Shown in pieces: positions 7,118-12,068 of a stretch of DNA of 64,000 nt. Each line of letters opens with the position of its first letter. Positions within the stretch are counted from its first letter, which is position 1. A program made the position numbers and the translations under genes. Source of the DNA: Escherichia coli (GTDB lineage Bacteria; Pseudomonadota; Gammaproteobacteria; Enterobacterales; Enterobacteriaceae); the NCBI RefSeq assembly GCF_041248615.1, contig NZ_CP158426.1; one strand, written 5' to 3'. The notes below the pieces were generated by a model that worked only from the letters and a program-made list of their open reading frames with translations, did not search any database and was not told where the DNA came from.

Positions 7118-7899
7118 ACAACGTTTTTACCGCGATACAAAACCGTGACGGAGAAGCCCTTTCTCGCATGTCAGGTTATGAGCATCAGTACGTCAACAAT
7201 GACAATGTGGTGAACATGTCAGCAGAGAGGCTTGTTGATGCCCTTTTTAAACAGCTGAAACAACTGTTTCCGGCGGCAGTGGTAACCAACCTGAAGACGC
7301 CAGAGCAGGAAGTTGCTGCAAAACAGCAGTGGATTGCTGCGTTTGCCGAAGGGGGGATCCGAACCCGTGAACAGGTTTCTGCTGGTATGCGCCACGCCCG
7401 CGCCAGTGAATCTCCGTTCTGGCCGTCTCCAGGGCAATTTATCAAGTGGTGCAAAGACAGCAAGATGGTTCTTGGCGTCACCATTGACGATGTGATGGCG
7501 GAGTTTCACCGGTACAGCAAGGAAAAAAGTTTATATCCTGGTGGTCCCGAAAGATTCCCGTGGCGACATCCGGTTATGTACTGGGTCGTATGTGATACCC
7601 GCCGTGCAATGTATCAGCGCCAGCTTAGCGAGATTGAGGTTGAGAAACACGCGCGCAGGCTGCTCGATGATTGGGCGAAAAAGGTGGCTTCCGGACAGCA
7701 GATACCCGATCCGGTGATCAGCATACAGGCAAAGCCAGAACCCATGAGTACACCTCCGGACACAGGGAGAGACGTTTACCATCCACCAGGGCGAAGTTTC
7801 GGGTGCATGCCTAACGCCGCCACCCTTGGGGGAATAACACCGGCGCAGTGGCTGATGGAGGAATACAGGCGGGGAAAGGCGGCAGGATTTATCAAGTAA
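7099..7899 (+). CDS. Replication protein P-like helicase loader
   Basis: Segment QQWIAAFAEGGIRTREQVSAGMRHARASESPFWPSPGQFIKWC aligns with lambda P (RRQWVLAFRENGITTMEQVNAGMRVARRQNRPFLPSPGQFVAWC); true start may be slightly downstream of 7099. Confidence 0.75.
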   Translation: MGGFLVNNVFTAIQNRDGEALSRMSGYEHQYVNNDNVVNMSAERLVDALFKQLKQLFPAAVVTNLKTPEQEVAAKQQWIAAFAEGGIRTREQVSAGMRHARASESPFWPSPGQFIKWCKDSKMVLGVTIDDVMAEFHRYSKEKSLYPGGPERFPWRHPVMYWVVCDTRRAMYQRQLSEIEVEKHARRLLDDWAKKVASGQQIPDPVISIQAKPEPMSTPPDTGRDVYHPPGRSFGCMPNAATLGGITPAQWLMEEYRRGKAAGFIK

Positions 7900-7936
7900 T
7901 ACCAGCGCGATAGCGCATTTTTTTACGCCTCGACAA

Positions 7937-8013
7937 TTACCTGTTAGGTAATAAAATATTCTAAAATCTATTGATTTCGTGTCTTATGTGGTTTTTAATT
8001 ACCTCAGAGGTAA
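7937..8013. promoter_or_regulatory. Two operator-like palindromes TTACCTGTTAGGTAA (7937-7951) and TTACCTCAGAGGTAA (7999-8013) flanking TTATGTGGTT motif
   Basis: Perfect TTACC-N5-GGTAA sites in gap between P-like gene and next gene; second site ends 3 bp before ATG 8017. Confidence 0.5.
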
Positions 8014-8016
8014 ATC

Positions 8017-8370
8017 ATGAGAAAACAGATACAGGCTCTTGGTCGACTCAAAACAGGTCAGATGAACAAAACAGAATCTGCGTATTGCCAGCACCTTGAG
8101 CTGCGTAAACGTGCAGGAGAAATCGTCTGGTATCGATTTGAGGGTATCAAGCTGCGGTTAGCTGACAACTGCTTCCTGACTGTAGATTTTGCCGTGATGT
8201 TGGCTGACGGGCAGTTGGTGATGGTGGACGTTAAGGGAAGTAAGTCAGTCTTTACTGACGATGCGAGAGTCAAGATGAAGGTTGCGGCAGACAGCTATCC
8301 GTTTGTCTTTCAGGTTGCTTATCCAAAACCTAAAAAGCTCGGTGGTGGATGGGAGGTTGAGGAACTATGA
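8017..8370 (+). CDS. Hypothetical protein, DUF1064-like, possible PD-(D/E)XK nuclease fold
   Basis: 117 aa; D...VDVKG motif; family assignment from memory only. Confidence 0.45.
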   Translation: MRKQIQALGRLKTGQMNKTESAYCQHLELRKRAGEIVWYRFEGIKLRLADNCFLTVDFAVMLADGQLVMVDVKGSKSVFTDDARVKMKVAADSYPFVFQVAYPKPKKLGGGWEVEEL

Positions 8371-8975
8371 GCGAGAAGCCCAATGCTGCGGGATTGATTG
8401 TATCCGGTGATAAAAACCCGAATTGGAAGGGTGGGAAAATCGAAAAGGTTTGTTCCGTATGTGGCAGGCAATATCAGGTTAAGCGAGCCAACTCATCTTC
8501 AAGGTTCTGCTCACTTCAGTGTGTAGGAATTTCACAGCGAGGCAAGACGGTAAATCGGGAACTAAAGCGAGTATTAAAAATATGCTGCGTATGCGGATCT
8601 TCGTTCTCCGTTTTCTTGAGTCATGAGAAGCGTCATAAATGCTGCTCGAAACAGTGTTCCAACATAATGCGTTCTTCTCTGATGAAGGGGGAAGGAAATC
8701 CAAACTGGTCTGGTGGATTATCGAGATTGCCGTATCCGTGGGATTTCCGAGAAACGAGCAAGAGGGTTATTGAGCGAGATGGTTTTACTTGTCAGAACCC
8801 AGGTTGTGATGGAACAGACAAAAGGCTAACAACTCATCACATCAATTACGACAAGCAAGACTGTCGTCAGGAGAACCTTATTTGCCTTTGTTCGAGCTGT
8901 AACTCGAAGGCTAATTTCGGTCGGCATAAGTGGCAAAAGTTTTATGAATCACTGATGAAAAATAGATCGGCATGA
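8367..8975 (+). CDS. HNH endonuclease with two N-terminal zinc-ribbon-like modules
   Basis: 202 aa; C-terminal HHINYDKQDCRQENLICLCSSCNSKAN (HNH motif); two CxxC...C..C clusters. Confidence 0.7.
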   Translation: MSEKPNAAGLIVSGDKNPNWKGGKIEKVCSVCGRQYQVKRANSSSRFCSLQCVGISQRGKTVNRELKRVLKICCVCGSSFSVFLSHEKRHKCCSKQCSNIMRSSLMKGEGNPNWSGGLSRLPYPWDFRETSKRVIERDGFTCQNPGCDGTDKRLTTHHINYDKQDCRQENLICLCSSCNSKANFGRHKWQKFYESLMKNRSA

Positions 8976-9036
8976 ATCGACGATCTTTTTAGTTATCAAT
9001 GTAATCAATAAGTTATGCGGATAAGCGAGGGTAAAG

Positions 9037-9618
9037 ATGGAAAGTAATATCAAAGGGTTAGTTGCCGCCGGGCATGAGATGGCTTCGGAACTGAAAGCAG
9101 AATGTGGTGCCGTTGATATGCGTAGTGTGGCAAAGCTGATCAGCGATTTGGCAACGCAACTGGAAGTGCAACTGGTGCGTGCTAATGCGCTGGCCGAAGA
9201 CCAACAGAAAGCGATTGAGTCAATTAAGCAGGCTGATTCGGCTGTTAAGTTGGCACACGAGAAGTTTTCGGCGCTGGCAGCGGAGAATGCAAAGCTGAAG
9301 AAGTTCTGCAAAGACGCTGCATTCGATGCCGATTACGAAGCAGAGCTAGGTATGGAGAGAGGTGGATTCAGTGATGCGCTTAACGAAATCAAAACCCCAG
9401 CCACCGATGCTTTCCTGGCTGAAGTGCGGGCGCAGGGCGTGGATGCTGCTATAGAAGCTGCAAAAAATCTGGTGGCCCAAGAATATGAGTATAAGGATTT
9501 CAAAGCGGCGCAGAGTGATTGCTGTATGCACCCTGGTTCAGACCTGGTAGGGAAGGTTGAAATAACTGAGTGGTTAGTTGACTTTGCTGCCCAGCTTCGC
9601 AAAGGAGGCAACCAGTGA
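9037..9618 (+). CDS. Hypothetical coiled-coil protein
   Basis: 193 aa, alanine/glutamate-rich heptad-like stretch; no motif recognised. Confidence 0.45.
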   Translation: MESNIKGLVAAGHEMASELKAECGAVDMRSVAKLISDLATQLEVQLVRANALAEDQQKAIESIKQADSAVKLAHEKFSALAAENAKLKKFCKDAAFDADYEAELGMERGGFSDALNEIKTPATDAFLAEVRAQGVDAAIEAAKNLVAQEYEYKDFKAAQSDCCMHPGSDLVGKVEITEWLVDFAAQLRKGGNQ

Positions 9619-10100: not shown

Positions 10101-10864
10101 GCAAAATTGACTATCAGGCACTGCGTGAAAAGGCAGAGAAAGCAACGTGTGGTGTGTGGTCGCTCGAATATGGAGAGAGCCGATTTGATTGTGATGATGC
10201 GCTAATTCATCGTGACGTTGTTGGATATCTTCCCATTTGCAGAATTGAAGGAGCGCATCCTGAAAGCGGTTTCGATGAAGATTTCCAGATGGAACAGCAG
10301 GCCAATGCTGAATTTATTGCTGCCTTTAATCCAAAGGTTGCTTTGGCACTACTGGATGAACGGAAAAAAAACCAGCAATACATCAAATCCCGCGACCAGG
10401 AGAACGAGGATATTGCGCTAACGGTAGGGAAGCTGCGCGTTGAGCTGGAAGCAGCAAAAAAGCGCATAGCAGAACTGGAGAAAAGCGAAGAGCAACTCAT
10501 CAACGAGCGTGACCATGCTGAGTCTGCTTTAGCTGATATGTACTTTGCAGCAACCGGGGATAGGCCTGAGTGGAGTAACTGGTTCGGCTTTTCAGATGCC
10601 GTCGATGCCGTAGTTGACAGAATTGCTGATTTAGAAGCTAAACAATGCATTGAAGAGATGAGTAAACAAAGTTGCGAAGCTCGGGAGCGTGATTTGTTTG
10701 AATCATGGGTAATGCATTCAATTTGTATTTCCAAATCGACGCTTGAAGGATTGCGCACCGAAACTGGATACCGTAACGCGACCTTATCAGGAACAGACTT
10801 CAACCGCATGTGGGAACAATGGAAATCTATCCGCGCCGCTGGCATTCGCATCAAAGGAGAGTGA
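10097..10864 (+). CDS. Ead/Ea22-like early protein
   Basis: 255 aa; N-terminus MSKIDYQALREKAEKATCGVW resembles Ea22-like prophage proteins (memory-based); central coiled coil. Confidence 0.5.
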   Translation: MSKIDYQALREKAEKATCGVWSLEYGESRFDCDDALIHRDVVGYLPICRIEGAHPESGFDEDFQMEQQANAEFIAAFNPKVALALLDERKKNQQYIKSRDQENEDIALTVGKLRVELEAAKKRIAELEKSEEQLINERDHAESALADMYFAATGDRPEWSNWFGFSDAVDAVVDRIADLEAKQCIEEMSKQSCEARERDLFESWVMHSICISKSTLEGLRTETGYRNATLSGTDFNRMWEQWKSIRAAGIRIKGE

Positions 10865-10865
10865 T

Positions 10866-11414
10866 ATGACCACTATAACCGATAAGAAACAGTATCCCAG
10901 CGAGCAATATCTTAATGAGCTGATCACCAACATAGAGTTTGCTGCAAGGGCACCAGTTGAAGTCGTGAGAGCGATGGCAGCAGAGCTACAGAAGCGGCGC
11001 GAAGCTGATAGTGCAGAACCTGCAAGTAATCATGAAGAGTTGCCGCTTGATTATCTCCAAGGTCAAAAAGATGGTCTTGAATGGGCTGCGCAGCTTGCAG
11101 AAGCAAATCACCCACAAACTGGCGACTGGCTTTACGATGACCCGCTGGAGCTGGCTAAAGCTATCAGAAAAGGTCCTGACATGCCCGAATTCGATGGACC
11201 AACTCCGGTAACTCCGGATGGTTGGATAAGCTGTAGTGAGCGAATGCCCGCTCAAGATGATTGGATTTTAATTTATTCAAAGCACGGCGAGTATATGGCA
11301 GGACAGGTACAAGGGGAATACGTGGAGTTGAGCGACGGCACTTTATCGTGGTTAGGGAACGCCTTGTACTGGATGCCTCTACCGGAACCGCCGCAGGAGG
11401 TTAACCGTGGCTAA
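10866..11414 (+). CDS. DUF551-like protein
   Basis: C-terminal WISCSERMP...ALYWMPLPEPP resembles DUF551 signature; ATG 10866 immediately after upstream stop (track ORF start 10743 rejected). Confidence 0.5.
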   Translation: MTTITDKKQYPSEQYLNELITNIEFAARAPVEVVRAMAAELQKRREADSAEPASNHEELPLDYLQGQKDGLEWAAQLAEANHPQTGDWLYDDPLELAKAIRKGPDMPEFDGPTPVTPDGWISCSERMPAQDDWILIYSKHGEYMAGQVQGEYVELSDGTLSWLGNALYWMPLPEPPQEVNRG

Positions 11415-12027: not shown

Positions 12028-12068
12028 GAGTAGATTATGCATGATGAATTTGATGTGTTTTGAATACT

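Follow-up and report, generated by a model that had tools for sequence, protein, structure and literature searches.

An HNH gene behind DUF1064 in a phiV10-like prophage of Escherichia coli as a likely free-standing homing endonuclease with gene-end replacement

Two small overlapping genes in an Escherichia coli prophage, both encoding predicted nucleases, raise the question of whether such neighbours are working partners or are joined for another reason. They were found in a 64,000-nucleotide (nt) stretch of contig NZ_CP158426.1 (NCBI RefSeq assembly GCF_041248615.1), which is referred to as the window, with positions counted from its first letter. An open reading frame (ORF) of 117 amino acids (aa) at 8017–8370 (+), encoding a DUF1064 protein, shares a 4-nt ATGA overlap with an ORF of 202 aa on the same strand at 8367–8975 (+), encoding an HNH endonuclease. 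An initial annotation of this DNA had described the two as a pair of nucleases that might act in recombination, homing or host DNA attack, and had doubted that the HNH protein serves terminase. From the evidence below, the HNH protein is likely a free-standing homing endonuclease specialised on DUF1064 genes, with an architecture that replaces the C-terminal end of the gene it invades, so that a host gene and its parasite would lie side by side rather than a working pair.

The insertion and its distribution

The window represents a phiV10/epsilon15-like prophage of E. coli, and the flanks of the gene pair share 93–98% identity with phiV10, an epsilon15-like Escherichia phage of the genus Uetakevirus. 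Identity to phiV10 amounts to 93% up to position 8169, drops to 54% over the 201 base pairs (bp) from 8170 to 8370, and reaches 98% again from 8976 onwards. The 605 bp in between (8371–8975) correspond to the HNH ORF (8367–8975, +; a match to PHROG 1271), which is absent from phiV10 and forms the inserted, putatively mobile gene. Since the left-hand change in identity falls within the DUF1064 gene, this gene consists of a native 5′ half (codons 1–51; 8017–8169, +), which includes the codon of catalytic E20 (8074–8076) and shares the 93% identity to phiV10 with the sequence upstream of it, and an imported 3′ half (codons 52–117; 8170–8370, +), which encodes D57 (8185–8187), D71 (8227–8229), K73 (8233–8235) and a GGGWEVEEL tail.

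Synonymous differences (pS) make this apparent chimera explicit. The 5′ half displays a pS of 0.18 versus phiV10 and of 0.98 versus L003, one of the HNH-bearing relatives (L numbers denote loci), and the 3′ half displays the reverse (0.98 versus phiV10 and 0.21 versus L003). Moreover, the imported half and the HNH gene appear to travel as one unit, judging from a pS of 0.21–0.28 there versus 0.7–1.0 in the 5′ half. A compositional anomaly was considered as an explanation and rejected, the gap between the HNH gene (44.5% guanine plus cytosine) and the prophage (48.7%) being small.

Directly behind the HNH ORF lies a 61-bp intergenic linker (8976–9036, +; ATCGACGATCTTTTTAGTTATCAATGTAATCAATAAG...), which is 98% identical to the sequence directly 3′ of DUF1064 in phiV10 and is kept after HNH in the enterobacterial relatives L003–L008, even when a different gene follows. 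For phages of this group, the linker probably serves as the homology arm on the right, and it could mark a mosaic boundary or have a regulatory role.

The flanks of the gene pair were found in 528 of 5426 complete E. coli genomes, and 21 of those 528 (~4%) carry HNH. The divergent 3′ half of DUF1064 was found at 100% identity in the same 21 accessions and in no others, and both HNH and the divergent half are missing from all 18 phiV10-like phage records that matched. HNH is therefore sporadically present at one site among otherwise near-identical genomes, with ~507 of the 528 E. coli prophages that have this region (about 96%) being devoid of it.

The same association was found well beyond E. 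coli. HNH homologues fall into at least 138 clusters of proteins; among the 120 listed, almost all are unnamed and lack a Pfam match. In each of about 14 distinct genomic or metagenomic places (HNH identity of 56–88%), a PHROG 190/DUF1064 gene (111–126 aa) is located directly upstream, mostly with an overlap, and the other neighbouring genes of these places are unrelated to each other (e.g., pRha/ANT, N6_N4 methylase, GcrA/Ros-MucR, NinB). An independent scan of IMG/VR, which yielded 45 loci, placed all 20 full-length HNH relatives (42–100% identity) directly 3′ of DUF1064, and the 25 loci that share the HNH domain alone (at most 47% identity) are without an adjacent DUF1064 gene. Among the places listed for Klebsiella and relatives (24 contigs), all eight with a window-type DUF1064 gene have an intact HNH gene of 222 aa directly behind it, and the HNH-bearing places there have at least three different flanking backgrounds. 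HNH is thus associated with the DUF1064 gene and not with a type of phage. No close HNH homologue was found by tblastn in 50,697 phage records, where the best matches (~30% identity; haloviruses, Brucella phages and Gordonia phages) lie in other contexts.

So constant a neighbourhood could mean that HNH and DUF1064 work together as a two-nuclease module in recombination, in restarting replication or in degrading host DNA, and are inherited jointly for that reason. Indeed, the ORFs are adjacent and overlapping or coupled in every context examined, both encode nucleases in the early replication and recombination region, and a DUF1064-like C-terminal strand is present on 41 of the 120 listed HNH proteins. 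However, DUF1064 is far commoner than its supposed partner (4723 protein clusters versus 138), and HNH is missing from about 96% of the E. coli prophages with this region and from all matching phage isolates. Furthermore, the DUF1064 gene is disrupted beside an intact HNH ORF at three loci, i.e., by a nonsense mutation at codon 35 in L008 (3651–4004), by a nonsense mutation at the codon of catalytic E20 in L033 (about 2151–2501) and by a frameshift near codon 103 in L043 (about 2152–2501), although sequencing errors are possible in these cases. The shared tail, finally, is explained by a duplication at the DNA level in which the native copy can be identified (see below). A joint function is thus improbable, and the suggestion of the initial annotation that both proteins act together did not hold up against the cluster counts and the three disrupted loci. 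The linkage between DUF1064 and HNH would rather exist because HNH inserted into, and travels with, the 3′ end of DUF1064, and it would be a mistake to take the adjacency of these nucleases for a sign of joint function.

Displaced gene ends and a proposed homing route

The C-terminal tail of DUF1064 (KKxGGGWxxEEF) ends 41 of the 120 listed HNH homologues, and partial versions of it end others. L019, L021, L022 and L031 each have a full-length upstream DUF1064 gene ending in its own tail, followed by an HNH ORF that continues into a second copy of that tail. The longest second copy comprises 36 codons and reaches back to the conserved DDA(R/K)VK|xKVAA motif. The longest remnants (P0032/L031, P0040, P0049 and P0060) start at this motif, which by inferred placement puts the equivalent of the oldest detectable insertion junction at codons 82–86 of the window gene (DDARVK|MKVAA; 8260–8274, +).

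The second copy occurs in graded states of decay, from a full tail (L019, L021, L022 and L031), over EEF only (L015) and an out-of-frame GAAGAGTTCTAA (L007) that matches the gene end GAAGAGTTCTGA of phiV10, to almost nothing in the window. Given this series in the relatives, the right junction of the window (8960–8975, +) was assigned as a vestige of the displaced native 3′ end of DUF1064. A remnant repeat of the tail was not found in the window itself, the duplication being seen in the relatives only. On the HNH protein tree, the state of the tail changed at least 23 times.

Which of the two copies is native could be read from L077, an HNH-less relative of the L019 lineage in which DUF1064 is directly followed by the same downstream gene as in L019. 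Between L019 and L077, identity amounts to 85% in the 5′ half of DUF1064, 63% in the 3′ part upstream of HNH, 86% in the tail fused to HNH, and 98% in the downstream sequence. These values indicate that the copy before HNH is foreign and that the copy behind HNH is the recipient's own displaced 3′ end. The L019 phage is unrelated to that of the window, and its foreign/native pattern matches that of the window. A second relative, retrieved via the downstream gene of L019 (L078), has neither DUF1064 nor HNH upstream of that gene and was uninformative.

These patterns would fit the following course of events. In a cell shared by an HNH-bearing phage and a relative devoid of HNH, the enzyme would cut the HNH-less DUF1064 allele, with the cut being predicted within roughly codons 52–85, which encode the (D/E)VKG...DDA(R/K)VK motifs. 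This position is suggested by the replaced stretches, which run from about codon 60 toward the 3′ end of the gene in both events (window and L019), and by the longest remnants starting at around codon 82. Repair of the break off the HNH-bearing genome would then copy in HNH together with a foreign, divergent and presumably cut-resistant 3′ part of DUF1064, and since this foreign part comes along with HNH, the host DUF1064 gene would stay intact. The native 3′ end of the recipient would be pushed downstream and fused to the C-terminus of HNH, after which it would decay (nearly to completion in the window). From these comparisons we infer not only cleavage and its position, but also its form (nick or double-strand break), the immunity of carrier alleles and present-day mobility.

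Tentatively, the second DUF1064 tail could moreover be a portable right-hand homology arm, refreshed at each jump with the 3′ end of the recipient, although we hold this to be the less probable view of the tail. If true, the element would need homology only within DUF1064 and could home between otherwise unrelated phages. With unrelated downstream genes, no right-hand homology other than the tail would be at hand, which would explain the repeated renewal of the tail. Within the phage group of the window, the linker at 8976–9036 could serve as such an arm, leaving the tail free to decay. In a bolder version, the tail (i.e., the last beta-strand of DUF1064) could dock HNH onto the DUF1064 nuclease, so that a junction-cutting enzyme helps to finish homing.

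A less active history would be that HNH was inserted once, illegitimately, and has since been spread by general recombination and vertical descent, with the nuclease not driving its own transfer or being domesticated (e.g., for phage exclusion). All E. coli carriers have one and the same chimeric structure and might go back to a single event, their frequency is low, the linker (8976–9036) and the palindromes upstream of DUF1064 (described below) mark module boundaries typical of phage mosaic recombination, and cleavage by HNH is itself a prediction. Nevertheless, the relationship between HNH and DUF1064 persists across otherwise unrelated phages, down to an HNH identity of 42%, and the native/foreign/native pattern arose in two independent lineages with left breakpoints in the middle of DUF1064. 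In addition, the imported half and HNH move as a unit by the pS values given above, the nuclease is under strong purifying selection, and the state of the tail has turned over repeatedly. Passive spread explains the target fidelity, the unit-like transfer and the purifying selection less well than homing does, and we regard it as rather unlikely.

Several points nevertheless weigh against HNH being a homing endonuclease of DUF1064 genes. The 21 E. coli carriers include clonal isolate series with one chimeric structure (99.1–100% identical), so that one acquisition with subsequent vertical spread may account for all of them, and the frequency of HNH in E. coli is only ~4%. The Pfam scores of the window protein lie below the gathering thresholds, and the Foldseek E-values of its model are weak (0.1 or worse). 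Cleavage, target site and preferential inheritance are deduced from sequence comparison, and not from biochemistry or genetics. Finally, because an HNH-bearing allele has an uninterrupted DUF1064 gene, its presumed immunity must rest on nucleotide differences. A comparison of HNH-bearing and HNH-less DUF1064 alleles revealed no consistent difference at the protein level that could explain immunity; an insertion of three codons (SKS) after VKG is confined to some of the HNH-bearing lineages.

With these reservations, a homing endonuclease that invades DUF1064 would provide a phage example of a selfish nuclease entering a coding gene without destroying it, by supplying a replacement gene end. 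Its insertion would also account for the local break in mosaic structure within a conserved phage gene, and the compact combination of zinc modules and an HNH domain makes the enzyme a candidate tool with a predictable natural target, i.e., DUF1064 genes.

The encoded proteins and their surroundings

The 117-aa protein matches PHROG 190 (E = 3.6e-37) and bears the name DUF1064 in RefSeq. Its score against Pfam DUF1064 (PF06356), 23.5 bits, is just under the gathering cut-off of 24.7 because the 3′ half of the gene is an imported variant. The 117-aa protein shares 74% identity with phiV10 gp45, and a precomputed PF06356 match exists for homologues of 70–77% identity. Residues E20, D57 and D71-V-K73-G are invariant or conservatively replaced among homologues, and the predicted structure (predicted local distance difference test, pLDDT, 88.8; predicted template modelling score, pTM, 0.79) displays an alpha-beta-beta-beta-alpha-beta core, in which the GGGW..EEL tail forms the last strand. 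As the E...(P)D...(D/E)xK motif sits on a PD-(D/E)XK-type core, the gene product is a small DUF1064-family nuclease of the PD-(D/E)XK type. DUF1064/PF06356 (the phiH ORF25 family) comprises predicted PD-(D/E)XK nucleases whose structurally nearest proteins are the archaeal Hjc Holliday junction resolvases, and by analogy of position with lambda Rap or RusA, the window protein is probably a branch- or junction-cutting enzyme. The 'Holliday junction resolvase' label of PHROG 190 was taken as annotation only and unverified, and we relied on the fold instead; its supposed origin in SPP1 G44P proved wrong, as G44P is RusA-like and not a DUF1064 protein (PMC3485210). An experimental characterisation of any DUF1064 protein was not found in the literature.

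Single-sequence searches of the PDB yielded chance-level matches only for both proteins of the pair. NCBIfam holds no model for either of them, with sub-threshold similarity of the HNH domain to IscB and ZorE only. Separately, PHROG 18669 ('unknown function', 54 positions) was seen to match residues 61–116 of the window DUF1064 protein, i.e., its C-terminal half only, and may be a collection of DUF1064 3′ fragments that were orphaned or displaced, for instance by insertions like the present one.

The HNH protein matches PHROG 1271 'HNH endonuclease' (E = 3.7e-23). Its Pfam matches are sub-threshold, both for HNH (15.2 bits, cut-off 21.4) and HNH_3 (18.0 bits, cut-off 24.8), PF01844 was matched at E <= 0.01 by 21 of 39 family members, and the family profile retrieved the HNH domain of IscB from the PDB (E = 2.3e-5). 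In an alignment of 39 homologues, two sets of four cysteines are invariant (C29/C32/C48/C52 and C73/C76/C93/C97), as are C142, C147, H158, N170, C175, C178, N179 and N183 of the HNH core, with H157 being nearly invariant. The first set belongs to Cys4 zinc module 1 (residues 25–58; 8439–8540, +), which shows weak zf-HIT and FCS-like matches and is preceded by NPNWKGG (8415–8435). The second belongs to Cys4 zinc module 2 (residues 68–106; 8568–8684, +), which is a tandem duplicate of module 1, as direct repeats D2 and D8 are spaced by 132–135 nt. The catalytic HNH (beta-beta-alpha-metal) domain spans residues 127–201 (8745–8969, +), with its core from C142 to N183 (8790–8915), and is preceded by NPNWSGG (8697–8717).

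In the AlphaFold model of the HNH protein (pLDDT 88.8), each Cys4 module takes the same form of a beta-hairpin plus helix, followed by a beta-beta-alpha domain. Strands at 154–158 and 171–175 and a helix at 176–181 carry the residues and scaffold of a His-Me finger nuclease. The top Foldseek matches (McrA, Cap5 HNH, Cas5-HNH and Gme HNH) are all weak (E >= 0.1). The multi-domain model has a pTM of 0.49, and the whole-model search is informative only in that HNH proteins rank highest. The ratio of nonsynonymous to synonymous substitutions (dN/dS) is 0.05–0.15 among enterobacterial copies, which denotes purifying selection and hence a maintained protein rather than a relic. Probably, the Cys4 modules read the DNA site, and the C-terminal HNH domain cuts or nicks it.

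In terms of structure, the initial annotation was thus accurate. Both ORFs (8017–8370 and 8367–8975), their ATGA overlap and a distance of ~3 kb to terS (3085 bp) were recovered, PHROG 190 and the fold model agree with a PD-(D/E)XK-type DUF1064 protein, and the invariant cysteines agree with an HNH protein carrying two N-terminal Cys4 modules. The nuclease fold of DUF1064, on which the annotation had let its reading depend, was looked for and is present in the model as the alpha-beta-beta-beta-alpha-beta core. Concerning function, homing is favoured by the evidence among the options it had listed, and nothing points to host DNA attack.

Its doubt about a role in packaging proved justified as well. 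The gene pair is located directly 3′ of DnaT-like and lambda-P-like replication genes, with about seven small early genes between it and terS/terL; terS starts at 12060, i.e., 3085 bp past the HNH stop codon. One possible role of the HNH protein, known from HK97 gp74 and from zinc-ribbon HNH nickases encoded next to terminase genes, would be that of an accessory endonuclease of terminase for cos/pac cleavage and packaging. Relatives at ~30% identity do adjoin terminase genes in haloviruses and Brucella phages, as well as in Gordonia phage Clown and cyanophage S-EIVl, and the combination of zinc ribbon and HNH resembles that of phage nickases (PMC3592412). However, the window gene belongs to the early region, with those seven or so genes still to come before terS, close homologues never adjoin terminase and always adjoin DUF1064, and phiV10 and the 17 other related phage records (18 of 18) package without HNH, which ~507 of 528 related prophages lack as well. 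A service to terminase is accordingly very improbable. As a separate observation, the large terminase gene of Halovirus HCTV-5 (L016; 2471–5044) is flanked on both sides by HNH genes, one of which is ~31% identical to the window HNH.

A Shine-Dalgarno-like GGAGG/GAGGAA, read from the sequence, was located in the last DUF1064 codons (8352–8364, +), before the HNH start codon (8367), and with the overlap of the ORFs suggests that HNH may be translationally coupled to DUF1064. Upstream of DUF1064, the palindrome AATTACCTnnnAGGTAA occurs in two copies 62 bp apart (7935–7951 and 7997–8013). The first copy overlaps a sigma-70-like promoter match (7930–7957; 10/12), the second abuts the ribosome-binding site of DUF1064 and is kept in relatives L003–L008, and together the palindromes look like operator sites of a regulator. 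No intrinsic terminator was detected in a scan of 7800–9150.

A 1.2-kb query covering the gene pair is 100% identical to E. coli chromosomal prophages, such as that of strain TUM9803. Beyond this query, the window differs from TUM9803 in the region of a DUF551 gene, the length of which is off by 78 bp. This region spans 10743–11414 in the window versus 11964–12593 in L001, and the downstream coordinates are displaced, which indicates more mosaicism within one prophage type.

In none of the 21 complete E. coli carriers in RefSeq is a feature annotated over the inserted HNH ORF (8371–8975), and of the five NCBI assemblies shown for the Klebsiella group, four (L023 and L025–L027) have an unannotated gap of 700–1300 bp here despite an intact ORF. 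Annotation thus systematically misses a conserved HNH gene under purifying selection, and in all 21 complete E. coli carriers a coding gene of 600 bp is read as intergenic DNA.

Relation to known systems

Zinc-ribbon HNH nickases such as N.phiGamma and N.BthT13001I, of which the tested ones are site- and strand-specific (PMC3592412, Xu and Gupta 2013), are likewise small and combine N-terminal zinc-ribbon sites ([CxxC]/[CxxxC]) with an HNH domain at the C-terminus, itself provided with a Cys4 zinc site (PMC3592412); the likeness seen here is one of architecture. In contrast to these nickases, which lie beside cos or terminase and are conserved within phage groups, the window HNH gene is located in the early region, within a DUF1064 locus, and is polymorphic. 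Likewise, the adjacency to terS, terL or portal genes and the group-wide conservation that typify HK97 gp74-like, terminase-associated HNH proteins are not found for the window HNH.

Free-standing homing endonucleases of phages are known for co-conversion and for cleavage at a distance from their own gene (review PMC2988022; mobE PMC2790892). Closest in this respect are mobA-E of the T-even phages (with mobE between nrdA and nrdB) and the 'intronless homing' of Seg, in which an endonuclease gene free of introns and inteins likewise lies beside a conserved phage gene (PMC2988022, PMC2790892). T-even Mob and Seg share with the present case a sporadic presence among near-identical genomes, a divergent co-converted flank and a cleavage site expected in the neighbouring gene. 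Unlike in T4 Mob, where the HNH domain is N-terminal, two N-terminal Cys4 modules precede a C-terminal HNH domain in the window protein, and no sequence relationship is detectable beyond the HNH core. The window element further differs from T-even Mob in residing in a temperate podovirus-like prophage, in its DUF1064 target and in carrying a replacement for the 3′ part of that target, and its activity is predicted.

This last property has its counterpart in the mobile endonuclease ORFs (mORFs) of fungal mitochondria (Allomyces macrogynus atp6; Glomus atp6, atp9, cox2 and nad3), which bring a foreign C-terminus and displace the native one (PMC3630166). Free-standing HNH homing endonucleases in phages and the swap of C-termini in fungal mitochondria are thus both well known, and limited literature searches turned up no earlier account of the present HNH family, of homing into DUF1064 or of such an architecture in phages. 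The order of elements resembles that of mORFs, i.e., a host 5′ part, an in-frame foreign C-terminus (8170–8370 in the window), an endonuclease ORF and, as seen in L019, a displaced native C-terminus. The native remnant is also closer to an ORF-less relative than the inserted copy is, with identities of 86% versus 63% for L019 and L077, and of 91% versus 64% for Glomus atp6 (PMC3630166). Differences lie in the nuclease and its setting, since mORFs encode LAGLIDADG or GIY-YIG enzymes in organelles and the present family consists of HNH enzymes in bacteriophages, and in the displaced C-terminus, which is retained in L019, L021, L022 and L031 and is reduced to a vestige (8960–8975) in the window. 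The window is, in other words, a decayed state of an mORF-type architecture.

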